NCBI GenBank assembly: GCA_963770565.1
Contig: CAVYQE010000001.1
Span: forward strand, 288,001-352,000
DNA: 64,000 nucleotides
Origin: an uncultured Actinomycetota bacterium
GTDB taxonomy: Bacteria; Actinomycetota; Actinomycetes; JAFAQI01
Reading direction: 5' to 3'
The position numbers were made by a program, and so were the translations under genes. The notes under the pieces are model-generated. The model searched no databases. It was not told the origin of the DNA and worked only from the letters and a program-made list of their open reading frames with translations. Shown in pieces: positions 32,958-49,978 of the stretch; the first letter of the stretch is position 1, and each line of letters opens with the position of its first letter.

Positions 32958-33962
32958 GTGCGAAGGCTGCTGATTCTGTTGCTCGTGGCCGGCGCCGGCG
33001 GCTGGTTCTTCTTCCATAAGTATCGGATCGACGGGATCGACCGCATCACGTTGCGGCCGCGCTCTCCAGGCGGTGTTGCCGCGGCGGGCAATTCCGGCGG
33101 CAGCCCCGTCGCGACGCGGCAACGGCCGACGAATACGATCCGCATCGCTGCGTTCGATCTCGATCGATTCGATGCGGCGAAGCTCGGCAATCCCCCGGTC
33201 TTGAAAGCCCTGCTCGACGTGGCGCGGCAGTTCGACGTGATCGCCCTCGAAGGGATCACGACGCCGCGCGACGACTTGATGGCGGCGCTGATCGAGCAGC
33301 TTGATGCCGGTGGTCGGCATTTCGACTATGTGATCGGCCCCCGATTGGGACGCGACGCCACTCCGGAGCAGTTCGCCTTCGTGTTCGACGCCGCCAGCGT
33401 CGAGGTCGATCGGACCACGATGTACACGGTCAACGATCCGGGGCGACTGTTGCTGCGCGATCCGCTGGTGGCGACATTTCGCGTGCGCGGTCCGGCGGCG
33501 AAAGACGCTTTCACTTTCACGCTGGTCAACGTGCATCTCGATCCACAGCGCGCCCCCGGCGAACTCGACGCGCTGGCCGAAGTCTATCGCGCCGTGCGCG
33601 ACAATGGCCTGCACGAAGACGACATCATCCTGCTCGGCGATCTCGAGGCCGATGATCGGCGACTGGGCCTGTTGGGAGAACTGCCCAACATGACCACGGC
33701 CCTGGCGGGAGTGCCCACCAACACGCGCGGGACGAAGATGTACGACAACATCCTCTTCAATCGCGAGGCGACCAGCGAATTCACCGGTCGCGCCGGCGTG
33801 ATCGATCTGTTGCATGAATGCAGCCTGACAATGCCGCAGGCGCTCGCAGTTTCCGATCATCTGCCGATTTGGGCTGAGTTCAGCATCTATGAAGGGGGCC
33901 AGCCGGGACGGATGGCGGTGCCGGCAGGGGTCGGGGGTCGGGGGCCGGGGGTCGGGGAGTGA
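32958..33962 (+). CDS. Endonuclease/exonuclease/phosphatase (DNase I-like) family protein
   Basis: IRIAAF, FDVIALE, FTLVNVH, IILLGD, YDNI and SDHLPIWAEF. Confidence 0.88.
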   Translation: MRRLLILLLVAGAGGWFFFHKYRIDGIDRITLRPRSPGGVAAAGNSGGSPVATRQRPTNTIRIAAFDLDRFDAAKLGNPPVLKALLDVARQFDVIALEGITTPRDDLMAALIEQLDAGGRHFDYVIGPRLGRDATPEQFAFVFDAASVEVDRTTMYTVNDPGRLLLRDPLVATFRVRGPAAKDAFTFTLVNVHLDPQRAPGELDALAEVYRAVRDNGLHEDDIILLGDLEADDRRLGLLGELPNMTTALAGVPTNTRGTKMYDNILFNREATSEFTGRAGVIDLLHECSLTMPQALAVSDHLPIWAEFSIYEGGQPGRMAVPAGVGGRGPGVGE

Positions 33963-34045: not shown

Positions 34046-34075
34046 TTGAAATTGTGCCACCTCTTCCGATATAGT
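34046..34075 (+). promoter_or_regulatory. Sigma70-like promoter for the left half of the phage-like cluster
   Basis: TTGAAA (34046-34051), 18-nt spacer, TATAGT (34070-34075). Confidence 0.6.
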
Positions 34076-34089
34076 CGCGTGAGTTGAGC

Positions 34090-34166
34090 GGTATCAGCGG
34101 AGCCTGACAAGAACCAGGTATCTCAAGAGCCCGCCGTCGGACGTTTGTCCGGCGGCGGGCTTTTTT
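34090..34166 (+). promoter_or_regulatory. Leader attenuator: twin GGTATC-N4-GAGCC boxes plus intrinsic terminator (copy 1)
   Basis: Boxes at 34090-34104 and 34117-34131; stem gcccgccgtcggac/gtccggcggcgggc followed by T6; same architecture at 45789-45867. Confidence 0.7.
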
Positions 34167-34211
34167 CGTTGTTCCGCGTCCCCTCGCGTTCTCATTCCCT
34201 CGGAGGTTGCA

Positions 34212-34412
34212 ATGAAATTGTTTCAATGGTTGCTGGCCAACCAAGACGCGTTGTTGGCGATCGTCGCGGAGTTGGAGACGATCTTCGGCGGCTCGTCTCC
34301 TACGCCCGCGCCCCAGACGATCGATCTGAGCGGCATCCAAGCGTTCATCGCCGCGGTGGAAAAGTGGCTCCCCGTGATCGAAGCGATTGTCGCCCAGTTC
34401 GCGGCCAATTGA
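34212..34412 (+). CDS. Small amphipathic hypothetical protein, first gene of the cluster
   Basis: ggagg RBS; 66 aa with two amphipathic helices. Confidence 0.6.
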   Translation: MKLFQWLLANQDALLAIVAELETIFGGSSPTPAPQTIDLSGIQAFIAAVEKWLPVIEAIVAQFAAN

Positions 34413-34419
34413 TTGTTCC

Positions 34420-34501
34420 CGTTGGAGTTCACGCTTTGGCGTGCCGCGGAACGCACGAGTGTGATTTCGAACAAACGCACGCCGAAGCGTGAACTCCAAC
34501 G
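34420..34501. repeat. Palindromic dispersed repeat gttggagttcacgct...agcgtgaactccaac
   Basis: Inverted repeat; related copy at 61557-61609. Confidence 0.7.
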
Positions 34502-34554
34502 GCTGAATTCCAACTTTGTTTCCAATGCGATCTTCAACATGGGACTCTCGAACG

Positions 34555-35322
34555 ATGATTCTTCATGGAAAACTCGGCAAGCTGCCGGCTCGGCATGATG
34601 TGCGCACGCTCCGCTTCGCCCGCTACGACCGCGCCTTGCCCGCGCCGCCGGCCACTTGCGATTATTCGATCAAAGTGCCCTCCTGGCCGATGCTCGGCAA
34701 CGATCGCTATGGCGATTGCACGTTTGCCGGGGCGGCTCATCTCAGTCAATGCTGGGTGGACAACGCCGGCTCGACGCCGGGCGGATTCCTGCCCGACGAT
34801 CGGGCCGTCGTCGCCGAATACCTCGCCTTCACCGGTGGAGAAGACACGGGCTGCGTCGAGTTGGACGTGCTCAAGACTTGGCGGGCCGACGGGATCGTCG
34901 GGCACAAGATCGGCGCCTTTGCCGCGCTGCGGGCGGGCGATCACGACGAGGCGCACGACGCCGTGTTTCTGTTCGGCGGCGCCTATTTGGGAGTCGCCAT
35001 GCCGCTCTCGGCCCAGAAGCAGCAGGTGTGGGACGTGCCGCGGCGCGGGCCGATCGGCCGCGGCTCGCCCGGCTCGTGGGGCGGCCATTGCGTGGTCGTC
35101 GTGGCCTATGACGCGCGGGGGCCGATCGTCGTCACCTGGGGGCAGCTCCAGCCGATGACCTGGGCCTTTTACGACGCCTATGTCAACGAAGCGTATGCGA
35201 TTCTCGCAGCCGACTTTTTCAACGGCGCGAGCGTCGCACCCAACGGCTTCGATCTCGCTGCGCTCACGGCCGATCTGGCGCTGGTCGGCCGAATGGAATC
35301 CCCCTCGCGTGCCACGGTTTGA
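34555..35322 (+). CDS. Papain-like (C1-related) cysteine peptidase of phage type; possible lysin
   Basis: MLGNDRYGDCTFAG (Cys), GGHCVVVVAYD (His), VTWG and YVNEAYAI. Confidence 0.65.
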   Translation: MILHGKLGKLPARHDVRTLRFARYDRALPAPPATCDYSIKVPSWPMLGNDRYGDCTFAGAAHLSQCWVDNAGSTPGGFLPDDRAVVAEYLAFTGGEDTGCVELDVLKTWRADGIVGHKIGAFAALRAGDHDEAHDAVFLFGGAYLGVAMPLSAQKQQVWDVPRRGPIGRGSPGSWGGHCVVVVAYDARGPIVVTWGQLQPMTWAFYDAYVNEAYAILAADFFNGASVAPNGFDLAALTADLALVGRMESPSRATV

Positions 35323-35516
35323 CGATCGCCGCGATCGACTTCGACCTTCGGAACAAACTCGACCGGCGTCCGTCAAGCCGTGCGACCCCGAGAGTTCGCC
35401 GCAGCCCGCACGGCTTGATCGGCGCCGGCAACGATCGTGCTCGACGCGGCGACCTGTTCGGCGTCGATCAAACAGTGGCACGAGCATCCCCCAACAAACA
35501 CACTTTATCTTCCTCC

Positions 35517-36996
35517 ATGCCGCGTCTTGCTCTACTTATCGCCGTCGTCCTGCCGCTGGGCGGTTCGCTTCGTGCGCAGTCGCCCACAAGCGAGTTGCGC
35601 GCCGCGGTGGCCGACATCGAGCGGCTGCCGGCGGAAGTGCGGCCGGGAGTGCGGTATCTATCGCTCTACGCGATTCCGGCCCGGCGCTGCGCGGAGACCG
35701 CGCGCGTCGTGAGCTACACGCTCAATGCCCTGAGCCGAACGCGGACGATCACGCCGCCGACCGCCGTATCGCCGACGCTGCTGCGGTTTTCGATCACCAA
35801 CTACATCGCCGACCGGGCGGAATTCGACGCCTGGGCGGCCGCCTGGGAACAGCTTGTCAAGGCCGATCCCTATTGGCATTTGCAGACGGAGATTCTCGCG
35901 GCGAGCGCCGCGAACCCCGCGTCGAAATCGGCTGCATTACACGCGACGCATCGCGCTCAAACGACCACCGTCACCGTCGATGGCGGCTGGCTCGATCTCG
36001 CCCTCGCCGCCAAGCTGTGCGCCGATTCCGGCAGTGCCGGAGCGCTGTTGCGGGCCGACGACTTCATCGCCCACGCCACGGCCGCGCCGCATTATTACGC
36101 GCTGGCCGGCATTCCGCCGACCGAGGCCGAGTTCGTCAAATCGCTGGGAGTCGATGCGGCGACGATCGAGCGGTTGCGAGCCGACGCCGGGGCGAATCTG
36201 CTGATTTCCGGAGTGACGCAAAAGCCGCGGCGAATCATCTGGTCGCAGGGGCCGCTCGGCGGCGTCTACGAAACGCTCGATGTCAAGCAAGTCGATGCCC
36301 GCCGCGATCCGATTCGCCGGCCGATCTCCGTCGGCAAGGTGAAACTGAAATACGACGCGGGGGAATGGTTTGCCGTCTGCGCCCAACGGTTTGTGGCGCG
36401 TCGCCCTGTACGATGCGGCCGGCAAGTTGCAACAGTCGGTCCCCGACAAAATCGCCAAAGACACCAGCGATCCCCGCGGCGACGGGATCGTCACGCCGCT
36501 GATCTCGTGCATCCGCTGCCACACCGAAAGCGGCTTGCGGCCGTTTCGCGACGATCAATCGCGATTGCTCGCCTCAGGCCGCGTCGATTTCGAAAGCGGC
36601 GATCCGGCGATCGTCCGCCGCGCGGCCGAATTCTATGACGAGCCCCGCTTGCAGCGGCAAATGGAGTTCGATCGCGAAACCTATGCCCAGGCCGTCGCGC
36701 GGGCGGCCGGCATGAAGCCCGAGGAATTGGCGGCCGCGTTGGCCCGCACGGTCCGCGAATTCGCCTATTTGCCTGTCACGCGCGCGCAGGCGGCCCGCGA
36801 ACTCGGCGTGCCGGAAGCGGAATTCGCCGCCGCGCTCCGTTCATCGCACGACCCGATCGTGCTGACGCTCATCGAAGGCCGCCCGGTGCTGCGCGGGCAA
36901 TGGGAGAGCAGCTTCGCCGAAGCGGCGGGGGGAGTCAGGGGTCGGGGGTCGGGGGTCGGGGGTCAGGGGTCGGGGGTCAGGGGTCGCGGGGAGTGA
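35517..36996 (+). CDS. Exported CxxCH (c-type heme motif) protein, one indel
   Basis: Signal peptide MPRLALLIAVVLPL; DAGEW; SCIRCH near 36505. Confidence 0.6.
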
Positions 36997-37099
36997 CGCG
37001 TGGCGCGTGTGGCACTGGCAAGCGCAGTCTGCCAGTGCCGTGTGGGTCGTGACGAGTGGCGAGTGGCGAGTCACAACAAACAACTGACAGAGGTTTTCC

Positions 37100-37674
37100 A
37101 TGAAAGTCGAACGCTTCACAATCTTTGCGCTCATGACGTTTGCCGCACTCTGGATGGTTGCCGGTTTTTGGGCTCCGAATGCGCTATCCGCCGCCTGCCG
37201 CGTGCAGACGGCGGTCGTGGCGGCCAATGTCGTGGCCGTGCCGGTCGCCCTGTCGATCGGAGTGCCGGTGGCCGACGCAGCGCCGTATCGATACAGCTAT
37301 CGAGCCTTCGCACCGCCGCCCCCCGAGCCGATCGGCGAAGCCGAGATCGAAGCGATTGCCGCGCGCGTGGCCGAGAAGCTACGGCCGGCGAACGGGAATT
37401 CATCGGCAAACGCAATTCCCGCTTCGCCACGACCGCCGCCAAGTCGGCCGCCGGCCGCCACGTCGCTCGTCGCGCAAAGTGTGCGCGATGTCACGGCGGA
37501 GCCGCGCCGAGAGCGAATCTCTCGTTCGAAAACCTCAACCGACTCGATTGCCGCACGCGCTTGGCGGCCGTTCGAGCCGTGCTCGACGAGTCGATGCCGA
37601 AAGACGGCCCGAGGCTCACCCCCGAAGAGGCCGGCCAAGTGCTCGAAGAATTGACGGATGAAAGGGGCAAGTGA
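37100..37674 (+). CDS. Exported small cytochrome c-like protein, one indel
   Basis: Signal peptide; KCARCHGG ... MPK distal Met in the downstream frame. Confidence 0.55.
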
Positions 37675-37843
37675 CGAGGGTGTGCCACTGGCAGGCAGTC
37701 TGCCAGTGCCCGTGGCGCGTGACGACTGGCAAGGGTGTGTCACTGGCAAGCACCGCCCAGTGCGGCGTGGTGACGGGCGATGTGTGCTTCCAGGCAGAGC
37801 AAAGAACAAGATTATCGGTTCCCTTTTTCTCGGAGGTGTTGTA

Positions 37844-38197
37844 ATGAAGAAGAGTATGACGAGTCTGTTGGTCGTGACGGTTTCGATCTTCGCGGCCGCC
37901 GTCGGTTCGGCATCGGCTTGCCCGGTGGCGATCGGCCCTGCGGCACCTGTCGCGTTTGCAGTTCAAGCCGTCGCGGCGCCGGTCGTCGTGTCGGCGGCGC
38001 CGATTGTCGTGCCGACCGCGCCGATTGTCGTGCAGTACACTCCGGCCGTCTATCTTACTGCACCAGTGTTGACGGCGCCGGTGTTGGCCGCGCCGACCGT
38101 GTCGCTGTCGGCAGTTCCGCTGGTGATCGAGCACGTGGTGAGGATCAAGTCGCGGCGGGCGTGTCGCACGCCGCTGCGCCGCCGGCTGTTTCGCTAA
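37844..38197 (+). CDS. Ala/Val/Pro-rich exported hypothetical protein
   Basis: ggagg RBS, signal peptide, AP(I/V)VV repeats, basic C-terminus. Confidence 0.55.
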   Translation: MKKSMTSLLVVTVSIFAAAVGSASACPVAIGPAAPVAFAVQAVAAPVVVSAAPIVVPTAPIVVQYTPAVYLTAPVLTAPVLAAPTVSLSAVPLVIEHVVRIKSRRACRTPLRRRLFR

Positions 38198-38295
38198 CGC
38201 AGCGCCCTTGCGATTTGTGGAACGGTCGGCTGATTCCGCTCCGGCGCCGCCTTGGCGTGCGTCCGGAGCTTGTTCCGACAGAGAGGTCACGATCC

Positions 38296-38523
38296 ATGAC
38301 GAATTCGGCTGGAAATCGCGTCAGCCTGACGCCCGGCGATTGGCTCAAGGTGGTGATGTTTCTCGTCGTGCAATCGGCGGCTTTGATCGGGGTCGGCGTC
38401 GATATGCGCGAGCGGCTGGTGATCGTCGAGACCCGGCTCCAGGCGCACGACGACAGCTTCGCCGACCTCCGCGGTGACGTGGCCGAGATGCGCAAGGAAA
38501 TCGCCGAGCTGAGGACGAAATAA
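38296..38523 (+). CDS. Small single-TM coiled-coil protein (holin/spanin-like architecture)
   Basis: gagg RBS; WLKVVMFLVVQSAALIGVGV TM then heptad coil; stop overlaps the next ATG. Confidence 0.5.
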   Translation: MTNSAGNRVSLTPGDWLKVVMFLVVQSAALIGVGVDMRERLVIVETRLQAHDDSFADLRGDVAEMRKEIAELRTK

Positions 38524-39076
38524 TGAACATCCGCGATCGAATCAAGGAATTGCGGCGCGTGAGGGCGGCGAGCTGCGCCCCAATCCGCGCAACTGGCGCA
38601 CGCATTCCGCCGCCCAGCGCGACGCTCTGCAAGGCATCCTGGCCGAGGTCGGCTACGCCGGCGCGCTCTTGGCCCGCGAGTTGCCCGACGGCTCGCTCGA
38701 ATTGATCGACGGCCATTTGCGGGCCGAGACGACCCCCGAGATGTCTGTGCCCGTGCTGGTGCTCGACGTGAACGAAGCGGAGGCGAACAAAATTCTCGCC
38801 ACGCATGATCCGCTCGGCAATCTGGCGGGCTGCGACGCCGCGGCGCTCGAATCGCTCGTAGCCGACGTGCAGACCGACAACGCCGCGCTGCAAAAGCTAT
38901 TGGACGACATGCTGCAAACGCCGGCAGGTTCCGAGCCGGATGAATTCCCGCGGTCCGAAACGAGCATCCCGCATTTGTTCCAAATCGTCGTCGAATGCCG
39001 CGACGAGGCCGAGCAGCAGTCGGTGTACGAGCGGCTGATCGAAGACGGATTGAAATGCCGGTTGATGATGTTGTGA
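38523..39076 (+). CDS. ParB-like N-terminal domain protein (phage type), one indel
   Basis: PNPRNWRTH, ELIDGHLRAE, VPVLVLDVNEAEA..LAT.DPL and IVVECRDEAEQ. Confidence 0.8.
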
Positions 39077-39215
39077 GCCTCGTTCCCAGGCTCTGCCTGG
39101 GAACGCCCTGCACTTGAGGCTCCGCCTCAACGTCAGCAGCGGATCGAGCCGACTTCGCCGACAAACGACGAGGCAGAGCCTCGCAGGCAGTGCGTTCCCA
39201 GGCTCTGCCTGGCAG

Positions 39216-39620
39216 CGCAGTTTGTGAGATGGAATCGTATCGACGTTTATGCTGTTTTTGTTCGGGGCTTTGGAAAGGACGGCAGGAGATCAAGGAACCC
39301 GGTAGGGTTCCCAGACATGAGCCGGTGGTTGACGCCGTCAGGCCGATACCACCGGTCGTGAAATCGAACAATCCCTTTTGCACCCCGATAGGGGTGCCAG
39401 CGCTCTGCGACCCCTACCGGGGTCGAAGAAAAGTTTTCGCGTTCCGATGCCGGCGGTGTCGGCCTGCGGCCTCAACCGCCGGCTAATGTCTGCCATCCCT
39501 ATCGGGATGAATTTCATGCCACCTCGGAGTCGGGAATTGTGCGAGTACGTGGGCGGAACAAAAACCGACCAAAACACGAACTCGAATTCCACTTCGAAAC
39601 TCCACAGATTGCACAGCCCA
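39216..39620. mobile_element. ~0.4-kb MITE-like element (copy 2), nested in a cgttcccaggctctgcctgggaacg repeat (39080-39725)
   Basis: High similarity to 4642-5047; flanked by two halves of another palindromic repeat. Confidence 0.7.
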
Positions 39621-39769
39621 GGCTCCGCCTCGTCATCACGACCCGCCACCAATCGCCACGCAACGAGCCGTGCCGCGCGGCAGAGCCGTGCCCGCAGTGC
39701 GTTCCCAGGCAGAGCCTGGGAACGAGATGCGAACAGCCGACAACCGACAACCGACCAAGGACCAATCCG

Positions 39770-40905
39770 ATGCTCGAAATCATCAACTCCTGTCCGCTGC
39801 ACGATTCGTTTCGCGTCCAACAGGTCGCCGGGATGTTCGATGTGCCGCTGGCCGAGAAGCTCAGCGAGCGTTTTACGGTCGAGATGCCGGCGCTCGACGG
39901 TGATTGGCGGATCGGGCTGATCGTCGGCCCGTCGGGCAGCGGCAAAACGACGCTCGCCCGGCGGCTCTTCGGCGATGCGCTGGTCGAGCGGACCGAGTGG
40001 CCGGCGAATCGGGCCGTCGTCGATTGTTTCGGCGACCTGCCGATCGGAGAAATCGTCGGGTTGCTCATCGCTGTCGGATTCAGCTCGCCCCCGTCGTGGA
40101 TCAAGCCCTACGCCGTGCTCAGCGGCGGCGAACGCTTCCGCTGCGATCTGGCGCGGGCGTTGAGCGGAGGGCAGAGAGCAAAGAGCGGAGCGCCGGACAC
40201 TTCTCCGCTCTCTGCTCCCTGCTCTTCGCTCGCACCGCTTGTGGCCTTCGACGAATTCACCAGCGTCGTCGATCGCACCGTGGCGAAGTTCGGCTCGGCG
40301 GCGGTGGCGAAGGGAATTCGCAACGGGCGAATCGACTGTCGATTCGTCGCGATGACTTGTCATTACGACGTGATCGAGTGGCTCGCGCCCGATTGGGTGC
40401 TCGATATGGCCAGCCGCGAATTCCAATGGAGGTCGCTTCGGCGACCGCCAATCGAGCTGGACATCTTTCGTTGCCGGAGTCGTGCATGGGCCTTGTTTGC
40501 GAAGCATCACTATTTGAACGGCCGCTTGAACCGCTCGGCCCGCTGCTTTATGGCATTGTGGGACGGGCGCCGGCGGCGTTTTGCGCGACGTTGCCGGTCA
40601 TCGGCCGCGCGCGGCGATGGCGGATCACGCGGCTGGTGACGCTCCCGGATTTTCAGGGCATCGGCATCGGCTTGCGCCTGGCGGAGGCGGTCGGCGATCG
40701 GCATCGTGCCCAGGGAGAACGCTATAGCATCACCGCCAGCCATCCGGCCGTGATCGGCCATTGCCGAAATTCGCCGCGCTGGCGGGCGACGCAAGTGATG
40801 AAGACCGGCTCGCGGCCTACTCTCGGGATTCCGAGCTATCGCGGCTCGTGCGGTCGCGCCGTCGTGTCGTTCGAATACGTTTCAGCTTCGGAACCTCGAC
40901 CGTGA
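39770..40905 (+). CDS. ABC-type ATPase fused to GNAT acetyltransferase (phage DNA-modification type), one indel
   Basis: [34 protein letters not shown] and [14 protein letters not shown]. Confidence 0.82.
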
Positions 40906-41209
40906 ACAAACCCATATTGCCCGTGACGGGAAACGGCTCGATCGCCTGGGCGTCGGCCAGCTCCCACGCATATTTATCGGCAGAACCCTCGAAGCCAGCC
41001 CCCGCGGCATCGCTCGGCAGAAAACGGCGAACATCAATGAGATTCACCACGCCGACGGCCACGCCGACCGGATCATCGCCGTGCGGCCGTTTGGTGGCGC
41101 AAATCAACAACGGCCCGCGATGCGACGTGGCCCACGAGCGGACCTCGATGGTCTTCTTCCCCGCGGCAATCAGCGAGGCCCAAGGTTGATGGACGGAGAG
41201 CGCTTTCAT
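40817..41209 (-). CDS. ASCH domain protein
   Basis: MKALSVHQPWASLIAAGKKTIEVRSW..RGPLLICA and YAWEL..P.PV.G.MGLF. Confidence 0.85.
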   Translation of the reverse strand: MKALSVHQPWASLIAAGKKTIEVRSWATSHRGPLLICATKRPHGDDPVGVAVGVVNLIDVRRFLPSDAAGAGFEGSADKYAWELADAQAIEPFPVTGNMGLFTVEVPKLKRIRTTRRRDRTSRDSSESRE

Positions 41210-41354
41210 GGAGATGAAGATAGCGGCTGGCTTGCGAGAATCAAGGCGACGATGCACGTAGGACGGCTCTCCCGAGCCGTCGTACCAGACGGCTCGGGAG
41301 AGCCGTCCTACGGGATCCGCCACCCGTCAACCCGAGGCCATTCGAATCGCACCC

Positions 41355-41819
41355 GTGAAATCCAGCCGCTATAAACTCGACGAAACCAAGCAGCGCGAGA
41401 TCTGCGCGATTCTCGCCGTCGGCGGCACTCGGCTGATGGCCGCCGCGTATGTCGGCTGCTGTGTGGCGACGATCCGCCGCGCGGCGCTGCGCGAAGCGGC
41501 GTTCGCCGCGCAGCTTCGCAAAGCGGAGAGCAGCGCCGAGATCACGTTCCTCAAGAGCATCCACGCCGCCGCGAGCGACGTCAAGCAGTGGCGGGCCGCG
41601 GCCTGGGCCCTCGAGCGGCTGTTCCCCGAGCGCTACGCCCGCCGCCTGCCCGACTCGATCACCGTCGAGCAAATGACCGAAATCATCAAGGCCCTGGGAG
41701 CGATCATCGTCGGCGAAGTGCCGGTCAAGCGATATCGCCAGCGCGTGCTGGCTCGCTTGGCGGACTTGCTGGCGGAGCAGCCGCCGAACAAGAAGGTAAA
41801 GGCATCCCGTGGAAAGTAA
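41355..41819 (+). CDS. Terminase small subunit-like HTH protein
   Basis: AAAYVGCCVATI HTH and WRAAAWALERLFPERY; overlaps the terminase large subunit start. Confidence 0.65.
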   Translation: MKSSRYKLDETKQREICAILAVGGTRLMAAAYVGCCVATIRRAALREAAFAAQLRKAESSAEITFLKSIHAAASDVKQWRAAAWALERLFPERYARRLPDSITVEQMTEIIKALGAIIVGEVPVKRYRQRVLARLADLLAEQPPNKKVKASRGK

Positions 41820-43426
41820 TCTGATCTTCGGCTGGCGCGGGCTCGACGCGGCGAACCGTTCGCTCCGCATCCTGCACGAGTCGATCGAGAATGAGGGGAA
41901 CGTCGATCGCCGCCCGGCCGCAATCGCCCGGCAATGGAGCTTGCTCGATTGGGGCCGCGCTTATTTGCCCGATCATTTCCGCGTCGCCCCGTCGCGGATG
42001 CACGTCTGGCTGGCCGAACAGTTCGACGAAATGAAAAACCATCGCGGCCGAAAGCTCAATGTGCTCGGCCCGCGCGGCGGGGCAAAGTCGACGATCGCTA
42101 CGCTGGCGTTCGTGCTCCGCTCGGCCCTCGAAGGCCGCGAGCCGTATATCTGGATCATCTCCGACACCAAGCATCAGGCCATCGCGCATCTGGAAAACGT
42201 CAAGGCCGAGTTGCGCGACAATCCGCTGATCGCCGCCGATTATCCCGAGGCGGCCGCGGCGGGGCGACGCTGGCGCGAGAATCTCATCGGGCTGGCGAAT
42301 GGCGTCACGATCGAAGCCTTCGGCACGGGGCAGCGGATCCGCGGCCGCCGCAGCCGCGAGCATCGGCCGACGCTCATCGTGTGCGACGATTTGCAGGACG
42401 ATCGGCATATCGAATCGCGCCTGGCCGCGCGAACATTCGGCCCGTTGGTTTCACGGAAAGTTGCTGAAGGCGGGAACGAAGCGAACGAACGTGGTGAATC
42501 TGGCCACCGCCCTGCATCGCGAGGCGCTGGCCCTGGTTCTCGACGAGACGCCCGGCTGGATTTCGCGGCGGTTCGCGGCCATCGAGCGCTGGCCCGACAA
42601 TATGCCGCTGTGGGCCGAGTGGGAGCAGATCTATGCCGACGTTGAACGACCGGATAGCCGCGAAGCCGCGCGGGCGTTCTTCGAAGCGCATCGCGCGGCG
42701 ATGGAGGCCGGCGCCGAGTTGCTCTGGCCCGAGGAAGAGGACTTGTACACGCTGATGGCGATGCGCGTCGAGGAGGGGCGGACGGCGTTCGAGCGCGAGA
42801 AGCAGAATGTGCCGATCAATCCGGAAGCGTGCGAATGGCCCGAGGAGTATTTCGGCGATGGGCTGTGGTTCGACGATTGGCCGGCCGACGTGCAGGTGAA
42901 AACGCTGGCCCTCGATCCGAGCAAGGGGCACGACGCCGGCCGCGGCGACTATTCGGCCTTCGTCATGCTGGCCGTGGATCGCCGCGGGCTGCTCTATCTC
43001 GAAGCCGATCTGGCCCGACGGCCGACGCCGCAGATCGTCAGCGACGGGGTGGAACTCTGCCGGCGATTCAAGCCCGACGTGTTCGGAATCGAGGCGAATC
43101 AGTTCCAGGAATTGCTCGCCGGCGAGTTTGCCGCGGAACTCGCGCGGCAGCGCGTCTACAACGTCGCCCCGTGGGGAATCGAAAACCGGATGAATAAGCA
43201 GACGCGAATCCGCCGCCTCGGGCCGTTCTTGTCGTGCAAGCGGTTGAAGTTCAAGTCCCACTCGCCCGCCACGCGATTATTAGTGGAGCAGTTGAAAGAA
43301 TTCCCCGTCGCCGATCACGACGATGGCCCGGACGCCGCGGAGATGGCGATTCGCCTGGCGGCCGAATGGCTGGAAGGCCGGAAACCCTCGGATGGCTTGG
43401 GAGATCGATTTCGCTTGAGCGTCTAA
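41809..43426 (+). CDS. Phage terminase large subunit, one indel
   Basis: GPRGGAKST, GQRIRGRR..RPTLIVCDD, FEREKQN.P, ALDPS..GDYSA, GIEANQFQ and HDDGPDA. Confidence 0.92.
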
Positions 43427-43467
43427 TGTCGCCTTTCGCTCCGCGAAAGAGCGTTTTCCCGCCGAGT

Positions 43468-43735
43468 TGTGGTCCGGTCTCGCGCGAGTTGTGGTCCGGT
43501 CTCCCGACCGGACCACTGTTGCCGACCGAAGGTCTCCGGCGCTTGGGAGACCTTCGGTCGGCTTGCGTGGCATGGTCGGGAGACCATGCCACAACCTGGA
43601 AACGATGTCGGCACTAACGCGGTCTGGCACCCCTATCGGGGTGCAAGGAGTTTTCTCGTTATCGAACCGGTGGTATCGGCCTTCGGCCTCAACCACCGGC
43701 TACCGTCTGCGAACCCTGCCGGGTTCGACTCGGAG
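43468..43735. repeat. Composite dispersed repeats (tgtgg..cggtctcccgacc family plus REP-like hairpins)
   Basis: Same units at 46398-46775 and 47968-48315; caccccta/tcggggtg hairpin shared with the 4642 element. Confidence 0.7.
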
Positions 43736-43772
43736 TGTGTCTGCTACATTACCTTAACCCCGAGTTCAAAAT

Positions 43773-45149
43773 ATGACCACCAACACCACACCTCTCTCCC
43801 GTCTCGAAAACCGTCTTCAGGAAGCCTACGAACAATTCTGCTCCACCATCGTCAACCCGCTCGATGCGCTGTTCGACGGCGATGGCGCTGCCTGGTTGCC
43901 GCTCGGCGGCGGGCTCGATGCGACCGGCCTCGGCGGCTGCGGGCCGACCACCGAAACGCAGCTTCGCGAAATCCGCCATCAATGCCGGCTGCTCGCCCTG
44001 ACCAACGAAATCGCCATCAACGGCCATGAGAATCGGGTGAGCTTCATCGTCGGCGCGGGGCACACCTATCGGGCGGCCGTGAAGAAGGGGCAGCCGGCGG
44101 CGCCCGATTGGGCCGCGGCCGTGCAGAGCGTGCTCGACGAATTCATCAAGCTCAACTCCTGGCAGCGACGGCAGCAGGAGATCGTGCTCCGCCGCGATCG
44201 CGACGGCGAAGTTTTCCTGCGCCTGTTCGCAGCCCCCGACGGCACGACCCGCGTTCGCTTCGTCGAGCCGGGGCAAGTCGCCACGCCCGCGAATCGCGCG
44301 GCCGATCCGTCGGCCCAATTGGGCATCCTCACCGATCGCGACGACGTCGAAACCGTGCTCGCCTATTGCGTCGATGGCCAGCTCGTCGACGCCGGCGAGA
44401 TTCAGCATCGCAAGGCCAATGTCGATGGCAATGTGCGCCGCGGGCTGCCGCTGTTCTTTCCCGTGCGGAAAAATCTGCGCCGGGCGGAAAAGCTGCTCCG
44501 CAATATGAGCGTCGTGGCCGAGATCCAATCGGCGATCGCCCTGATCCGCAAACATCATCGCAGCAATCGCAGCGCCGTCGAGCAATTCGCCGCCGCCGGG
44601 GCCGATGCCCGCGTGACGAATACGCTGAGCGGGCAAACGACGAACGTTCGCCGCTACGGTCCCGGCACGATTCTCGATACGCATGCCGACATCGACTACG
44701 ACTTTCCCGCCGCCGCGATCGACGCCGGCAGCTTCATCGCCGTGCTGCAGGCCGAATTGCGGGCGATTGCCAGCCGGCTGGTCATGCCCGAGTTCATGCT
44801 GACTTCCGACGCCTCGAACGCGAACTACGCCTCGACGATGGTGGCCGAAGGGCCGGCGATGCGGATGTTCGCCCGGCTGCAAGCGGAGCAAGTGGCCGAC
44901 GACGTTGAGTTGATGACCCGCGTGGTGGCGAACGCCGTGGCGGCCGGCCGACTGCCGCGCGAGGTGCTTTCCGCGATCGAGATCATCGGCATCGCCCCGA
45001 CGCTCACTGTGCGCGATCAGATGCAAGAGGCCCAGCGGTTCCAGATCGAGCACGCCAACGGCATCCTCTCGCCGCAAACCTGGAGCCAACGGCTGGGACT
45101 CGATTACGAGCAAGAGCAAGCGAATTTCGCAACGCATGCCGGCCGGTAA
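43773..45149 (+). CDS. Phage portal protein
   Basis: RRDRDGEVFLR, IQHRKANVD..RRGLP and PEFMLTSDASNANYAS; directly follows TerL. Confidence 0.88.
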   Translation: MTTNTTPLSRLENRLQEAYEQFCSTIVNPLDALFDGDGAAWLPLGGGLDATGLGGCGPTTETQLREIRHQCRLLALTNEIAINGHENRVSFIVGAGHTYRAAVKKGQPAAPDWAAAVQSVLDEFIKLNSWQRRQQEIVLRRDRDGEVFLRLFAAPDGTTRVRFVEPGQVATPANRAADPSAQLGILTDRDDVETVLAYCVDGQLVDAGEIQHRKANVDGNVRRGLPLFFPVRKNLRRAEKLLRNMSVVAEIQSAIALIRKHHRSNRSAVEQFAAAGADARVTNTLSGQTTNVRRYGPGTILDTHADIDYDFPAAAIDAGSFIAVLQAELRAIASRLVMPEFMLTSDASNANYASTMVAEGPAMRMFARLQAEQVADDVELMTRVVANAVAAGRLPREVLSAIEIIGIAPTLTVRDQMQEAQRFQIEHANGILSPQTWSQRLGLDYEQEQANFATHAGR

Positions 45150-45495
45150 AGTCGCGGAGCGACGACCGGCGAATAGCCGGGGGTGGAGCGTAGCGGAGCC
45201 CCGAATGCAGTCGCGGAGCGACGACCGGTGAATAGCCGGGGGCGGAGCGCAGCGGAGCCCCCGGTTTCGAATATCGGGATTTTCCCGCAGCCGCGTAGCG
45301 GCGAAACATCCCGCCGCGCCCTCATGTTTCGCCGCTACGCGGCTGGCGGTTCATATTGCCCGGCGACCGGGGGTTGCGCTGCGCTTCACCCCCGGCTATT
45401 CGAAGGTCGTCGCTCCGCGACTGCAAGATGTGATCGCTCCGCGACTGCAAGATGTGATCGCTCCGCGACTGCAAGATGTGATTGTTCCGCGACGG
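45150..45495. repeat. REP-like palindromes and 23-bp tandem units (cgctccgcgactgcaagatgtga)
   Basis: gtcgcggagcgacga..aatagccggggg twice, an inverted copy, and three tandem 23-mers at ~45410-45485. Confidence 0.75.
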
Positions 45496-45560
45496 CGTTG
45501 GCGCCGGGCCGTTTCGAGCATCAAGACCACAGATTGTTTTTGAATGGCACAAAAATGTCG

Positions 45561-45589
45561 TTGAACCGAAACGTGAACATATGTATAAT
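45561..45589 (+). promoter_or_regulatory. Near-consensus sigma70 promoter; probable leaderless transcript
   Basis: TTGAAC (45561-45566), 17 nt, TATAAT (45584-45589); ATG at 45596. Confidence 0.75.
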
Positions 45590-45595
45590 ACACCC

Positions 45596-45778
45596 ATGCT
45601 GACGCTACGAACCACGACCGCGAATCAAACGAAAGTGAGCCAGTTGGAAACCGCCTTGGCGGAACTGCTGGCCGAATCGCTCCGCCGCGGCTTTCACGGC
45701 AAAGCGGCCATCGAGCTGGCCATCCAAGATGGCACGATCCAGCATATCCGCCGCGTGGTCGAGCGGATCGAGAAATAG
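45596..45778 (+). CDS. 60-aa DUF2292/YezD-like small protein; candidate antiterminator
   Basis: RRGFHGKAAIELAIQDGTIQHIRRVVERIEK resembles the DUF2292 pattern (G.v.i.i.dG.i.qi...ek); sits directly upstream of the twin-box terminator. Confidence 0.65.
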   Translation: MLTLRTTTANQTKVSQLETALAELLAESLRRGFHGKAAIELAIQDGTIQHIRRVVERIEK

Positions 45779-45788
45779 GAAATCCATC

Positions 45789-45867
45789 GGTATCGCGTCG
45801 AGCCCGCTCCGGCGGGCATCTGCGTGAGCCCACGGCGGTTCTGCAAAGTGCCGCACGTGGGTTTTTT
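45789..45867 (+). promoter_or_regulatory. Twin GGYATC-N5-GAGCC boxes plus intrinsic terminator (copy 2)
   Basis: Boxes at 45789-45804 and 45815-45830; stem cccacggcgg...ccgcacgtggg followed by T6. Confidence 0.7.
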
Positions 45868-45895: not shown

Positions 45896-47159
45896 ATGAA
45901 CGAAACGCTCTTGGAATACTGCAACTCGCGGGGAGTGCCGATCCGTGTCGATCGCACGGCCGGCGTGATCCGCGGCGTGAAAATTCTCGGCCTCCGCTCG
46001 CGCAACGGCCGCGAGTATCTGCCCGAGGCGCTCGGCCGGGCCGCCGCCCTCTATGAAGGGGCCAAGGTCAATGTAAATCATCCCAAGGGGAGCCCCGCCG
46101 CCCCGCGCGATTATCAAGATCGGATCGGCACCGTGCGCGGCGTCGCCGCCCGAGCGGGCGAGGGCCTGTTCGGCGATCTCCATTTCAATCCCAAGCACGC
46201 CCTGGCCGAGCAGCTCATCTGGGACGCCGAGCATGCTCCCGAGAACGTCGGCTTCTCGCACAACGTGCAAGCCCGCACCGCGCGGCGCGACGATTTGCTC
46301 GTCGTCGAGGAGATCACCCGCGTCGAGAGCGTCGATCTGGTGGCTGATCCGGCGACGACCCGCGGGCTGTATGAAGCGGAAGGACAGGGGTCGGAGAACG
46401 TTGTGCCTCGGTCTCCCGACCATGACCAAGTTGTGTCTCGGTCTCCCGACCACGTTGTGTCTCGGTCTCCCGACCACGTTGTGTCTCGGTCTCCCGACCG
46501 TGACTATGTTGTGTCTCGGTCCAATGTTGTGTCTCGGTCTCCCGACCATGTTGTGTCTCGGTCTCCCGACCGTGACACCCGCGCGACCAATGTTGTGTCT
46601 CGGTCCAATGTTGTGTCTCGGTCTCCCGACCATGTTGTGTCTCGGTCTCCTGACCGTGACACCCGCGCGACCGAAGGTCCACTGCGCGCCGGAGACCTAC
46701 GGTCGGATTCTGTGGCACGGTCGGGAGACCGAGCCATAACCGGCGTGGCACGGTCGGGAGACCGAGCCACAACTGCGGCCGAAGGTTCGAACGAGGGGTC
46801 AGGGGTCGGGGGCCGGGGGTCGGAAGGGCAAGCGGAACTCGCCGAGTTGGCGGAGCTTCGCAGCCGGTTGCTGCGGCCTCGAAGCCGAACATGCGGCCGT
46901 GCTGTTGGAGCAATCCATTTCCGACGAGCTGCTGGCCGCCCAAGTCGCGCCGCCGCTGGTCAGCGAACTCTTTCGCCAGCAGCTTCGCGCGGCGGGCAGT
47001 CCCGAAGCGCGCCGGCAGTTGATCGTCGAACGGTTGCAAATCGCCCGCGCGGCCGCCGCCGCCCGGCCGGCGAGCAAAGACCAGTATTTGGCCGAATCGA
47101 CCGCTCCGAGCCGATTGCCGACCGATCCCAAAAGCTTTGCCGATTCGATCACGGCCTGA
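45896..47159 (+). CDS. Prohead protease/scaffold protein with an in-frame repeat insertion, 3' indel
   Basis: SRNGREY, VNVNHP, VGFSH and SVDLVADPATTRGLYE; located between portal and capsid genes. Confidence 0.75.
46398..46775. repeat. Tandem gttgtgtctcggtctcccgacc units inside the CDS
   Basis: About nine 18-30-bp units encoding VVSRS(PDH/N), followed by inverted units. Confidence 0.85.
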
Positions 47160-47262
47160 TGGCGCCGCAGCGGAATTCGCAAGAATTCCGAGAGCCGACC
47201 ACAACGACCGCGTCTGAATTCTTGCGAATTCAGCTACGACCCCCAACCCAAGGAACTCCTCC

Positions 47263-47953
47263 ATGACCAAGCTCATCGACTTGCTCGATCAACTCAAGCA
47301 TCGCCGCACGTTCGGCTTTCTCGACGATTTCGATTGGTATCTCAGCCCGCACCGCTGGACCAGCGTGTTCAGTCATAGCGGCACGGTGACGATCGCCGAC
47401 GCCGCGGGCGGGATCGCGACGATCGCGGCCAGCGGCGGATCGGTCGCCGCGAACGACGAAAGCTACGTGCATACCAGCCACGCCGTGTTCGAATTCGCCG
47501 GCGACAAGCCGATCCTGTTCGAGGCGGCCGTGCAGTTCAGCGAGGCCAACGTCGATCAAGCGAATATCCTCGTCGGCCTGATGGACTCGGTAGCCGCCGG
47601 AATGCTGGCCGACGACAACGCCGGACCGAAAGCATCGTACAGCGGCATGGTCTTCTTCAAGGCCGGGGAAGCAACGTCTGGAGCTGCCAATCGTCGGTCG
47701 GCTCGGCGAAAACGACGACCGTCACCTCGACTCCTGCCGGCGGCGCCGCCTATCAAACGCTCACCGGCCAATGGCAGCCGATCAACGCGACTCAAGCCGA
47801 AGCGGCGTTCTTCATCGACGGGCTGCTCGTGGCCCGGCAACTCTTCACGTTCACCGGCGGCGTGGCGATGCAACTTTGCGTCGGCGTGAAAAACGGCAGC
47901 GCCACGCTCGAAACGTTGAACGTCGATTACTCGGCCGGCTATCAACTGCGATG
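47263..47953 (+). CDS. Hypothetical virion protein (possible head decoration), one indel
   Basis: Beta-rich sequence FLDDFD..W and FFIDG; between scaffold and capsid genes. Confidence 0.5.
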
Positions 47954-47967
47954 AATGGCAGTTGTCC

Positions 47968-48315
47968 TGTTGTGGCTCGGTCACTGTTGTGGCTCGGTCT
48001 CACTGTTGTGGCTCGGTCTCCCGACCGTGCCACATGCCGCGACCGCAGGTCTCCCATGCATTGCGAGCCGTGTGGTGATTCGGGAGACCTTCGGTCGGAT
48101 CCGTGGCATGGTCGGGAGACCATGCCACAACACAGTGGCTCGGTCACTGTTGTGGCTCGGTCTCACTGCTGTGTGGCTCGGTCTCCCGACCGAGCCACAT
48201 GCCGCGACCGCAGGTCTCCCTGCCTCGCGGGCCGTGTGGTGATTCAGGAGACCTTCGGTCGGATCCGTGGCATGGTCGGGAGACCATGCCACAACACGGG
48301 AGACCATGGCCACAA
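47968..48315. repeat. Duplicated palindromic repeat block (tgtggctcggtctcccgacc...ggtcgggagaccatgccaca)
   Basis: Two tandem ~165-bp copies visible. Confidence 0.8.
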
Positions 48316-48401
48316 CACCGGCGGACAAAGCACAACGGACAACGGACAACGGACAACTCTCGATTTCCAATCACTCTCAACCTATTCGGAGACGCTTGAT
48401 T

Positions 48402-49580
48402 ATGACCAAAGCCGTCAACTATCGCGAACTGAAACGCCTGTACGAAACGATGGGCTCCCAGCAGGTCTGCCGCCATTTGCGCGAGTCGCTCGGCGACGGG
48501 CATCTCCGCCCCGAGGATTTCTCGCTCCGCGATCTGGCCGAAGCGACGATCCCCGACGGCCGCGAGTTCGTCCGGCTGCTCGATCCGCGCTCGAAGGCCG
48601 GCGGGATCGATCTGCTCGAAGCGGCCGACGCCGTCGATACGGCCACGTTCAGCAATATCACCGGCCAGATCGTTTTCGCGAAGATCATGGAGGGCTTCTC
48701 GTCGGAGGCCTTCGTCGCCGGCCGAATGGTCGAGACGATTCCCACCCGCTTCAGCGGCGAGAAAATCCCCGGCATCGGCCCAATGGGCGACGCGGCCGAG
48801 GCGATCGACGAAGGGCGGCCCTACCCGCACGTCGGCCTCTCCGAGGATTACATCGAAACGCCCGCCACCACCAAGCGCGGCATGATCGTCCCCGTCACCA
48901 AGGAAGCGATCTTCTTCGATCGCACGCATCTCGTGCTCCAGCGGGCCGGCGAGGTCGGCGAGTTTCTCGGCCTCAACAAGGAGAAGCGGATTCTCGATTG
49001 CCTCATCGATGCCAACAGCACCGATCATCGCTACAAGTGGCGCGGGACGAGCTACGCGACCTATCAGACGTCCGACCCTTGGATCAACATCAAGGCGACC
49101 AATCCGCTGGTGGATTGGACCGACGTCGATGCGGCCGAGCAGCTTCTGGCCGACATCACCGATCCGAATACGGGCGAGCCGGTGCTGATCATGGCCGACA
49201 CGATCCTGGTGTGCCCCGAATTGCTGCACGCCGCGCGGCGGATCGTCGATGCCACCGAGATCGAACAGGTTGACAACCAGGCCGCCGCCAAGACGGTCCG
49301 CACTCTGGCCCCCAATCCGATGGCCGGCAGCTACCGCATCCTGTCGAGCCGGCTGCTGCGGTCGCGGCTCACGGCGGCCGGCCAGGCCACGAGCAATTGG
49401 TATCTCGGCAATTTCCGCAAGGCCTTCGCCTACATGGAGAATTGGCCGATCACCGTCACCCAGGCCCCGCAAAACAGCGAAGCCGAATTCACCCAAGACA
49501 TCATGATCCGCTTCAAGGCCAGCGAGCGCGGCGCGGCGGCCACGCTCGAACCCCGCTACGTCGTCAAGAACACGGCCTGA
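48402..49580 (+). CDS. Major capsid protein (HK97 fold, Mu gpT-like)
   Basis: 392 aa; IDEGRPYP..GLSE, TKRG.IV.VTKEAI.FDRT and RFKASERGAAATLEPRY; canonical position. Confidence 0.8.
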   Translation: MTKAVNYRELKRLYETMGSQQVCRHLRESLGDGHLRPEDFSLRDLAEATIPDGREFVRLLDPRSKAGGIDLLEAADAVDTATFSNITGQIVFAKIMEGFSSEAFVAGRMVETIPTRFSGEKIPGIGPMGDAAEAIDEGRPYPHVGLSEDYIETPATTKRGMIVPVTKEAIFFDRTHLVLQRAGEVGEFLGLNKEKRILDCLIDANSTDHRYKWRGTSYATYQTSDPWINIKATNPLVDWTDVDAAEQLLADITDPNTGEPVLIMADTILVCPELLHAARRIVDATEIEQVDNQAAAKTVRTLAPNPMAGSYRILSSRLLRSRLTAAGQATSNWYLGNFRKAFAYMENWPITVTQAPQNSEAEFTQDIMIRFKASERGAAATLEPRYVVKNTA

Positions 49581-49925: not shown

Positions 49926-49978
49926 GCTTACCGCTGCCCTCACAAATCTCCCGGAAAACCCAGAAACGCGGCTCAGCC

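Follow-up and report, generated by a model that had tools for sequence, protein, structure and literature searches.

A candidate antitermination switch formed by a twin-box RNA hairpin and a 60-residue protein in a phage-like gene cluster

Introduction

How late genes are controlled has been worked out in a few model phages, which employ Q, N or DNA-binding activators, and to our knowledge nothing is known of it in the phages of Planctomycetota and of most uncultivated lineages. Here, we describe a twin-box RNA element that occurs at two places in a phage-like gene cluster on contig CAVYQE010000001.1 (positions 288,001-352,000; this whole stretch of 64,000 nucleotides (nt) is referred to as the window), together with an open reading frame (ORF) for a protein of 60 amino acids (aa) that lies just upstream of the second copy. 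Each copy shares sequence with an intrinsic terminator and stands ahead of a block of phage morphogenesis genes. From sequence comparison and structure prediction, we assign a probability of about 0.6 to the reading that the element is a protein-dependent antiterminator switch for the late operons and that the 60-aa protein is its effector.

Several described systems resemble this arrangement in part. In the BglG, SacY and LicT systems, the small dimeric CAT module is thought to stabilise an imperfect, quasi-symmetric ribonucleic antiterminator (RAT) hairpin that overlaps the 5' arm of a terminator, and termination is the default. The present locus is similar in that the 3' strand of its hairpin is at the same time the 5' arm of the terminator and in that termination is the predicted default, which is a likeness of design and not of homology. 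In contrast to CAT/RAT, the protein considered here is only 60 aa long, has no CAT_RBD or PRD domain and is predicted to consist of a helix and a beta-hairpin, while the RNA is unrelated and carries bulged adenines in its helices; furthermore, sugar operons are controlled there, whereas phage late operons would be controlled here. The targets of ANTAR proteins consist of two separate hairpins with conserved loop positions. They share with the present element the 'twin' appearance, a 3' part that overlaps a terminator and the dependence on a protein, which is presumed here, but the boxes described below pair together in one covarying hairpin, and no ANTAR domain was found among the ORFs scanned.

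Among phage systems, the N-nut complexes of lambda and P22 modify RNA polymerase and act at distant terminators. The likeness to N and its boxB hairpin lies in a small phage protein (putative in our case), in a short hairpin present at several sites per genome, and in the A-rich pentaloop of a single-box form of the element. However, every copy here abuts and overlaps its own terminator, and it is the stem with its bulged A, not the loop, that is conserved. The Q protein loads on DNA and paused polymerase and acts processively. In the lambdoid PR'-tR' arrangement, a terminator is reported to stand immediately behind a strong promoter and ahead of the morphogenesis genes, which a phage antiterminator is needed to switch on, and the short terminated RNA is a by-product (PMC7547250). 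A promoter closely followed by a terminator upstream of late genes is also present in our case, but with an RNA hairpin that overlaps each terminator locally and with no Q-type domain in the ORFs scanned. Finally, the coat protein dimers of MS2 and PP7 recognise a short hairpin through a bulged adenine in its stem and thereby repress translation, whereas antitermination is proposed here and no similarity in sequence or fold was found.

The twin boxes form a single RNA hairpin

The box GGYATC-N4/5-GAGCC matches the window four times, always on the + strand, and the matches are grouped as two pairs (34090-34131 and 45789-45830). By chance, 0.12 matches to the N4 pattern and 0.10 to the N5 pattern would be expected in the window, and two of each are observed. 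In the entire genome of 4.43 Mb, the single box occurs 23 times, about twice as often as a reversed control (12), and the matches to a covariance model of the twin arrangement (R1, built together with alignment A1 from 19 copies) are confined to these two places. Directly 3' of each pair of boxes there is a GC-rich stem and a T6 run. The features of the two copies are as follows.

34090-34104, + strand: copy 1, box 1, GGTATC-AGCG-GAGCC
34117-34131, + strand: copy 1, box 2, GGTATC-TCAA-GAGCC
45789-45804, + strand: copy 2, box 1, GGTATC-GCGTC-GAGCC
45815-45830, + strand: copy 2, box 2, GGCATC-TGCGT-GAGCC
34090-34131, + strand: candidate antiterminator hairpin, copy 1; P1 pairs 34090-34095 with 34127-34131, P2 pairs 34100-34104 with 34117-34122; R1 score 49.8 bits
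45789-45830, + strand: candidate antiterminator hairpin, copy 2; P1 pairs 45789-45794 with 45826-45830, P2 pairs 45800-45804 with 45815-45820; R1 score 52.9 bits
34127-34166, + strand: intrinsic terminator 1; stem at about 34125-34164, 5' arm beginning with GAGCC of box 2, U6 at 34161-34166
45826-45867, + strand: intrinsic terminator 2; 5' arm beginning with GAGCC of box 2, U6 at 45862-45867
34046-34075, + strand: sigma-70-like promoter of leader copy 1, TTGAAA-18-TATAGT
45561-45589, + strand: sigma-70-like promoter of the small ORF, TTGAAC-17-TATAAT, ending 6 nt 5' of the ATG (leaderless geometry)
45596-45778, + strand: 60-aa ORF, candidate RNA-binding antiterminator, with its ATG 6 nt after the -10 hexamer

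A preliminary description of this stretch, made from its letters, had reported the design shared by the two loci (boxes, hairpin, terminator stem and T6), both promoters and the leaderless 60-aa ORF, and all of these are present at the coordinates listed above. It had also regarded the boxes as two linear sites flanking a short hairpin, and this part has to be revised, as they are the two strands of two helices in one hairpin. In the predicted fold, the twin boxes pair together into a pseudo-symmetric structure, in which box 1 GGUAUC pairs with box 2 GAGCC (P1) and box 1 GAGCC pairs with box 2 GGYAUC (P2). The A of GGYAUC is bulged in each of these 5-bp helices, and P1 and P2 are related by a pseudo-dyad. 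Between P1 and P2 there is an internal loop with 4-6 nt on either side, and P2 is capped by an apical stem-loop that varies. The bulged A's lie at 34093 and 34120 in copy 1, which has AGCG/UCAA as its internal loop and again a variable apical part, and at 45792 and 45818 in copy 2.

Stem covariation in homologous loci, the absence of which would have counted against the preliminary description, is observed in 41 model-aligned copies (alignment A3). Standard pairs fill 99.2% of the 523 cells of the alignment, as compared to 26.7-51.8% when the structure is slid by 1-3 columns, and 8 of the 13 pairs show changes on both sides (33 cells); none of 500 shuffles attains the observed values. The compensatory changes also occur within the otherwise conserved boxes:

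L184:127: GCGCC with GGUAGC
L201:617: AAGCC with GGUAUU
L199:1630: GAGGU with ACUAUC
L185: GGUAUU with AAGCC
L206 and L207: GAGCU with AGUAUC
L200: GAGUU with AAUAUC

Both bulged A's are invariant in 41 of 41 rows, the letters of the internal loop vary, and two G.U pairs are conserved in 40 and 37 of the 41 rows. Since a G.U pair becomes an A.C mismatch on the opposite strand, the fold exists on the sense strand only, which favours an RNA over a DNA site. The idea that the boxes are DNA operators of a transcription factor, to which the direct repeats close to the promoter in copy 1 might lend themselves, is hardly credible: the box spacing ranges from 21 to 37 bp, the spacer is always a covarying stem, and about 190 nt separate copy 2 from the promoter upstream of it.

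Overlap of the hairpin with the terminator

The 3' GAGCC of every copy precedes a C and a long stem, the 3' arm of which ends in GGGCUC or GGGCUU ahead of the U-run. This arm is complementary to the 3' GAGCC, which can therefore pair alternatively with GGUAUC, forming P1, or with the terminator. Minimum free energy (MFE) folds place at least four of the five box 2 GAGCC bases inside the terminator in 36 of 39 evaluated copies, which bears out the earlier claim that box 2 belongs to the 5' arm of the terminator; a complete P1 appears in one MFE fold only, as a truncation artefact. The cost of forcing P1 and P2 over the MFE fold has a median of 10.1 kcal/mol (n=39, with L183 and L179 left out for lack of a U4 run by regular expression, and with the artefact values of L163 and L207, which were cut at an internal U-run, still included), and amounts to 11.2 kcal/mol for copy 1 and 4.4 kcal/mol for copy 2 of the window. 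The terminator is thus favoured in the folds, so the default state is predicted to be termination. Loss of the lowest stem pairs next to the U-run is known to abolish intrinsic termination; holding P1 would remove the lowest 5-6 of these pairs and would accordingly be expected to prevent termination here. Taken by itself, without regard to the factor that might operate it, the hairpin/terminator switch is very probably real and conserved.

Neither the window, in which Rfam 15 gives 0 matches at the gathering threshold, nor the element in four twin loci searched at E (expectation value) ≤ 1 matches a described RNA family, and in eight single-box loci tRNAs were the only matches at that level. 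Furthermore, literature searches at the level of titles and abstracts yielded no description of the motif or of a function for the protein, although supplementary motif catalogues could contain it. At this level, the statement that the motif is not a described element has held.

Promoters and position of the small ORF

The two promoters are the only 10-of-12 sigma-70 matches within 31-50 kb, and in both window copies the next start codon lies 29-46 nt past the U-run. As no other promoter match of this quality was seen in 31-50 kb, the late genes would need read-through of the terminators. Leader copies of the copy-1 type are present in the window and in L206, L172, L184, L199 and L201, and a promoter closely followed by the terminator is the layout in all five of the homologous leaders. 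The extended promoter motif TTGAAATTGTGCCAC occurs exactly in the leaders of the window, L206, L172 and L199, and as close variants in those of L184 and L201.

This layout could also be read in another way, namely that copy 2 is a 'moron' cassette, an ORF with its own promoter and terminator, that the copy-1 unit yields a short non-coding RNA, and that the hairpin serves stability or processing. The promoter-gene-terminator order between structural genes at copy 2 and the length of the copy-1 RNA, which would be about 85 nt, are in line with such a cassette, as is the analogy with lambdoid PR', which is reported to be always active and terminated at once to give a short RNA (PMC7547250). However, GAGCC is common to the hairpin and to the base of the terminator in essentially all copies, which indicates alternative pairing and not a 3' stabiliser, the ORF-less copies with the same conserved hairpin would be left unexplained, and no other promoter match of such quality was seen in 31-50 kb from which the late genes could be served. 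We regard the cassette explanation as improbable.

An extended conserved -35 region (TTGAAATTGTGCCAC; TTGAAnnnGGCCAC) is seen at both kinds of promoter, at 34046-34060 of the window, in the leaders of L206, L172, L199, L201 and L184, and at the small-ORF promoters of L159, L160, L170 and L171; it may point to an activator, a repressor or a sigma specificity that the two kinds have in common. In addition, tandem repeats lie between the portal gene and the small-ORF promoter, one of 24 bp in 3.5 copies (45410-45493, about 70 bp upstream of this promoter) and one of 59 bp in 1.9 copies (45150-45261). These repeats may be sites for a regulator controlling the promoter of the putative antiterminator.

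Homologous loci with the twin element

Scanning genome contigs for the pattern revealed the full design in L070 (Thermoguttaceae), L094 (Planctomycetaceae) and L100 (a bin labelled Nealsonbacteria) among the matches listed, at least 120 in number and mostly due to chance. The viral scan gave 17 loci, of which 14 have the full design, one is a variant (L174) and two are false. A homologue of the small ORF is located just upstream of the element in 17 of the 18 loci found through the RNA. When the small ORF was used as the starting point, 37 viral loci were recovered; in 32 of these, the ORF is followed by an element that R1 detects (E ≤ 0.064), including the single-box form of L208, and the divergent copy of L200 is visible by eye, which makes 33 of 37. 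The 24 loci newly found in this protein-first scan include 20 with the element. The co-occurrence with the small ORF, which the preliminary description had suggested looking for, is thus observed from both sides. Across the related loci, the gene order of portal, promoter, small ORF, element, 456-aa homologue and capsid is kept.

With R1, 150 other genomes of the class gave 0 matches; the scoring used stricter filters and reached 39 of several thousand candidates per genome, so that rarity is only weakly indicated. Several candidates were rejected: L009 and L113 match the full pattern and have no terminator, and L162 and L167 of the viral scan are tandem or coding repeats, again with no terminator. 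The loose pattern GAGCC-N6-22-GGYATC-N4-5-GAGCC was about as frequent in 401 genomes of the phylum as its reversed control, and the result was not used.

In most of the ORF homologues inspected, a TTGAAx -35 is combined with a TAnnnT-like -10 whose end is 6-8 nt from the start codon, with no Shine-Dalgarno sequence (as read by eye), while an AAGGAG is present in the more distant relative of L208. The distance from the stop codon of the ORF to box 1 is 10-21 nt in some loci, so that a terminating ribosome could mask box 1, as in a translation-coupled or kinetic attenuator that has no dedicated protein. Translation-coupled attenuation was set aside, as this distance ranges from 10 to 223 nt across the loci and there are leader copies without the ORF. 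A small-molecule riboswitch would likewise need no dedicated protein, and the pseudo-symmetric internal loop could hold a ligand, but it is the helices and bulged A's that are conserved and the internal loop that varies, and no riboswitch of Rfam is matched. Together, these protein-free explanations are quite improbable.

The L100 contig carries a complete planctomycete-phage cassette (small ORF with 63% identity, twin-box, 456-aa homologue and capsid) and is probably a mis-binned phage contig. In L182, L190/L191 and L205, the small ORF is kept (45-62% identity), and neither twin-box nor terminator precedes the next gene; L190 and L191, which are identical in the stretch examined, have a strong hairpin without a U-run instead. 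Runs of 7-nt units are found between the small ORF and the element in L184, L185, L200, L201, L163, L164 and L168, and also after the small ORF of L182, and at 33927-33957, 36930-36990, 50946-50976 and 52012-52064 in the window. The units often contain stop codons (examples of units are CTAACAG, CTGACGA, TAGGGAT, GGGGTCG) and occupy the intergenic spaces of this phage family, and in several loci (e.g. L184, L185, L200, L201) a run is followed by its inverted complement.

The 60-aa protein

The family of the 60-aa protein comprises 1530 clusters (90% identity) at E ≤ 0.001 among 2355 candidates. The 120 relatives listed among these are 59-78 aa long and have no precomputed Pfam domain, and the few named ones are hypothetical proteins from metagenome-assembled genomes of Pirellulales or Thermoguttaceae. 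Pfam searches at E ≤ 10 gave no family for the ORF or for four homologues, nor any CAT_RBD, PRD or ANTAR domain; for the 60-aa protein, PHROG gave no match and NCBIfam no meaningful one. No relative was found in the PDB by profile search or Foldseek, BFVD gave no Foldseek match below E 0.04, and merely non-significant MADS/HU-like topologies were returned by the PDB and BFVD searches. A tblastn search with three family members against 50,697 GenBank phage records also yielded no relative.

The AlphaFold2 monomer consists of a helix (8-28) and a beta-hairpin (35-44 and 47-57), with a mean predicted local distance difference test (pLDDT) score of 84.9. Prediction as a homodimer reaches a score of 0.67, as compared to 0.13 for the best control, and this mark was attained in a benchmark by 20 of 30 proteins solved as one-chain pairs, as against 1 of 23 for which a single chain was solved. 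The runs have at least 94% of contacts in common, the partner pLDDT is at least 79, and the predicted interface, formed by strand 35-44 and one face of the helix, is symmetric. The prediction supports a homodimer, and a symmetric dimer would suit a pseudo-dyad RNA.

In the preliminary description, the protein had been called DUF2292-like. DUF2292 (PF10055, YezD-like) proteins are of similar size, appear by our own reading of the sequences to have a helix followed by a beta-hairpin, and share the motif [FY]G...QDG with the 60-aa protein; seven DUF2292 sequences from five genomes of the phylum show [FY]G..V....QDG and a preceding helix-like stretch, one more hit, in an unpublished genome, being set aside. 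However, hmmscan with PF10055 (cut-off 22 bits) gave no match at E ≤ 10 for eight family members, and the ORF was not matched at E ≤ 10 in a six-frame search of the genome. A comparison of the small-protein alignment A2 with the seven DUF2292 sequences by hhalign is weak (E 0.003, probability 10.5%, 32 columns), and the ESM Atlas gives a lead only, as its nearest cluster to which a family is assigned, a viral one (score 0.78), has DUF2292 in 38% of its members. The GGUAUC box is absent, by eye, from the 140 nt downstream of seven bacterial DUF2292 genes, and no title found in literature searches on DUF2292 or YezD describes a function. The 60-aa protein is therefore not assigned to DUF2292, although it may be a remote relative, to which the weak leads would point.

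The single-hairpin form

A simpler form of the element was found when viral sequences were scanned for GGTATC-N6-12-GAGCCC with a terminator. This yielded 19 loci, four of which are of the twin type, while the others have a single hairpin, GGUAUC-NN-loop-NN-GAGCC, that directly overlaps the terminator. In metagenomes, the fixed N9 form was found at 71 loci, corresponding to 63 unique elements. Of these elements, 39 have two canonical extension pairs, where about nine are estimated from random letters, and the extension pairs covary (GA/UC 13, GG/CC 10, AA/UU 9, CG/CG 3); the loop is mostly 5 nt long and begins with A. Homologues of the portal, terminase, capsid and 456-aa proteins of the window were not found in the single-hairpin loci, one of which has the ParB-like gene.

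In L210/L208, L212, L213, L227, L228, L249, L239, L268, L276 and L267, the single hairpin begins 7-35 nt after the end of a distant relative of the small ORF, and these relatives carry the motif R.F[YWFH]G ... [QE][DNG]G.[ILV]. Their E-values in searches with a hidden Markov model (HMM) range from 1e-10 to 0.05, and hhalign gives E 0.003 for L212 and 0.0055 for L213; a search with the single L212 protein returned its own two records only. In a search of every ORF in the 71 metagenome loci (407,346 bases), the distinct HMM hits (E ≤ 0.1) were located upstream of a same-strand element in 8 of 8 cases, seven at 7-35 nt from a single hairpin and one (L283) about 95 nt before the apparent first box of a twin-type element. 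An iterated HMM on upstream ORFs, run with a stricter terminator filter, gave six ORFs and missed some known ones, and was not used for totals. The gene that follows the element differs between loci: judged from our own reading of the N-termini, it seems to resemble TerS in L228, a portal gene in L213 and a scaffold gene in L212.

One ORF-linked copy is accompanied by further ORF-less copies in the window, L206, L184, L199, L201, G538, G541 and L276, as would be expected if a single regulator had several targets.

A variant of the single hairpin, GGUGUC...GGGCC, with a bulged G and not A, follows a clear relative of the small ORF (E 1e-10) in L227 of record G538, which also holds a canonical GGUAUC copy elsewhere (L220).

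Proposed mechanism and the identity of the factor

In the mechanism that we propose, each locus would be a transcription attenuator ahead of a phage morphogenesis gene block, where the nascent RNA can adopt two folds, either the pseudo-two-fold hairpin or the intrinsic terminator, which uses the 3'-most GAGCC. Unaided, the terminator would prevail and transcription would stop after about 85 nt at copy 1 or just past the small ORF at copy 2. A sequence-specific factor could clamp the bulged-A helices and retain GAGCC in P1, so that the terminator stem could not reach the U-run and RNA polymerase would continue, into the packaging operon at copy 1 and into the head/tail operon at copy 2. The likeliest factor is the 60-aa protein, which would be produced from its own promoter on a short terminated transcript and would act in cis on its own terminator (copy 2) and in trans on copy 1. 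If the protein is made on a short terminated transcript, the structural genes would be switched on once it accumulates. We infer termination, read-through, protein-RNA binding and timing from the comparisons and folds given above. The earlier proposal of antitermination by the small protein at both operons fits the covariation, the mutual exclusion of hairpin and terminator, the linkage to the ORF and the predicted dimer; its linear boxes and its DUF2292 label have been revised.

Several observations weigh against this proposal. The protein is only mildly basic by our own count and has no recognised RNA-binding domain. The ORF is present without a downstream element in 4 of the 37 protein-found loci (L182, L190, L191, L205), and L172 has a leader copy and no ORF homologue in the 12.6 kb examined. 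No ORF homologue (E ≤ 1) was found in 8 of 10 further single-box records, one of them rated 100% complete, and an ORF is detectable directly upstream in just 7-9 of the 63 unique metagenome elements. Inside the twin family, synteny is conserved and the co-occurrence of ORF and element is largely due to shared ancestry. The alignment A3 was fitted to the structure of the model and favours that structure. Furthermore, an antiterminator with a near-consensus promoter would have to be kept under additional control inside a prophage, and no such control was found.

Much the same observations can be turned into an alternative, namely that the switch is real but is worked by a host protein, by RNA polymerase itself or by another phage protein, the ORF having an unrelated role and being merely part of a conserved cassette. 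The four loci with ORF and no element, a protein devoid of known RNA-binding domains, and the many single-box records and metagenome elements with no detectable ORF homologue would all be accommodated in this way. The host genome, however, has no other box-plus-terminator arrangement, so a host regulon is not visible, and the ORFs that were scanned have no N, Q, ANTAR, CAT or NusG-type domain (about 45 window ORFs, passing a size filter and a filter on GC content at third codon positions, were scanned with Pfam). In addition, the ORF lies directly upstream of the hairpin also in non-syntenic phages, at differing positions of the gene order. Short divergent proteins are hard to detect and the contigs are mostly fragments, so the missing ORFs do not decide the matter. 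We consider it unlikely that another factor is responsible, and retain the 60-aa protein as the candidate effector.

Gene content of the phage-like cluster

The phage-like cluster extends over about 30300-61500. The genes upstream of about 30 kb are cellular (ATP sulfurylase, EAL protein, PPIase and Mfd-like helicase), and the flanks consist of the Mfd-like helicase gene (28144-29904) and a MacB-type ABC transporter gene (61620-63986). The genes assigned downstream of the two copies are listed below; the copy-1 operon also contains several ORFs with no assigned family alongside its first, 66-aa ORF.

34212-34412, + strand: first ORF of the copy-1 operon, 66 aa
38669-39076, downstream of copy 1: ParB-like gene
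39539-40639, downstream of copy 1: ATPase
41355-41819, downstream of copy 1: TerS
41809-43426, downstream of copy 1: TerL, spread over two frames
43773-45149, downstream of copy 1: portal (lambda family)
45896-47266, + strand: first gene of the head/tail operon, 456 aa, with an N-terminal part of about 160 aa that is 60-79% identical in all related loci
48267-49580, downstream of copy 2: capsid
49882-50838, downstream of copy 2: head-completion/head-closure gene
52077-52460, downstream of copy 2: weak major-tail-protein match

The capsid and head-completion genes and the weak tail match agree with the preliminary description, which had placed copy 2 before a capsid/tail half. The 'peptidase/packaging half' assigned to copy 1 is supported for packaging by TerS, TerL and portal, while no peptidase family was found in the ORFs scanned.

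The reading frame of TerL is broken near 42419-42423, with residues 53-224 of the L171 homologue encoded in one frame to 42423 and residues 223-552 in the other from 42419, and it is single in the homologues of L171 and L172. The split is a frameshift, stemming either from a decaying prophage or from an assembly error. No integrase, repressor or replication gene was found among the ORFs scanned in about 30300-61500, and no tRNA was found; the cluster may be a defective prophage or an element resembling a gene transfer agent.

Tandem repeats occur at several further places. A unit of 297 bp is arrayed in 5.1 and 3.8 copies at 54508-57352 (94-95% identity, GC about 50% as compared to 63% for the window), within the cluster; on one side it is bordered by an ORF that follows the tail-like gene and ends at 54658, and on the other by ORFs with no assigned family. 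This array contains no ORF of at least 150 aa and has no similarity to 14 related phage loci. Repeats of 24/84 bp at 46398-46672 fall within the 456-aa gene that follows copy 2, and repeats of 164 bp are located at 47967-48297, just upstream of the capsid gene.

Concluding remarks

To conclude, the locus appears to combine an RNA motif and a protein family, both of them new, in a known kind of mechanism. The family, with at least 1530 clusters at 90% identity, has no annotation, and together with the RNA it offers a compact testable pair for which the predictions are clear, with an RNA of 42 nt (20 nt in the case of the single hairpin) and a protein of 60 aa. The covariance model serves as a marker for late-operon starts in phage contigs from metagenomes. 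If the proposal is true, a bulged-A helix read by a small dimer would be a new mode of RNA-protein recognition, and the pair would provide a small orthogonal antitermination part for synthetic circuits; if the link to DUF2292 is true as well, an RNA-binding role would be suggested for that orphan bacterial family.

In a wider sense, we see even odds that these loci belong to a widespread and as yet undescribed phage system of antitermination, in which a dimer of about 40-60 aa per chain (helix and beta-hairpin, possibly a far relative of DUF2292) clamps the bulged-A GGUAUC/GAGCC helix and withholds the base of the terminator. In such a system, a single regulator gene would serve several terminator-leaders per genome, the twin form of planctomycete prophages would be a duplicated, dyad-symmetric operator, and the arrangement would act as a master switch of morphogenesis in many uncultivated phages.

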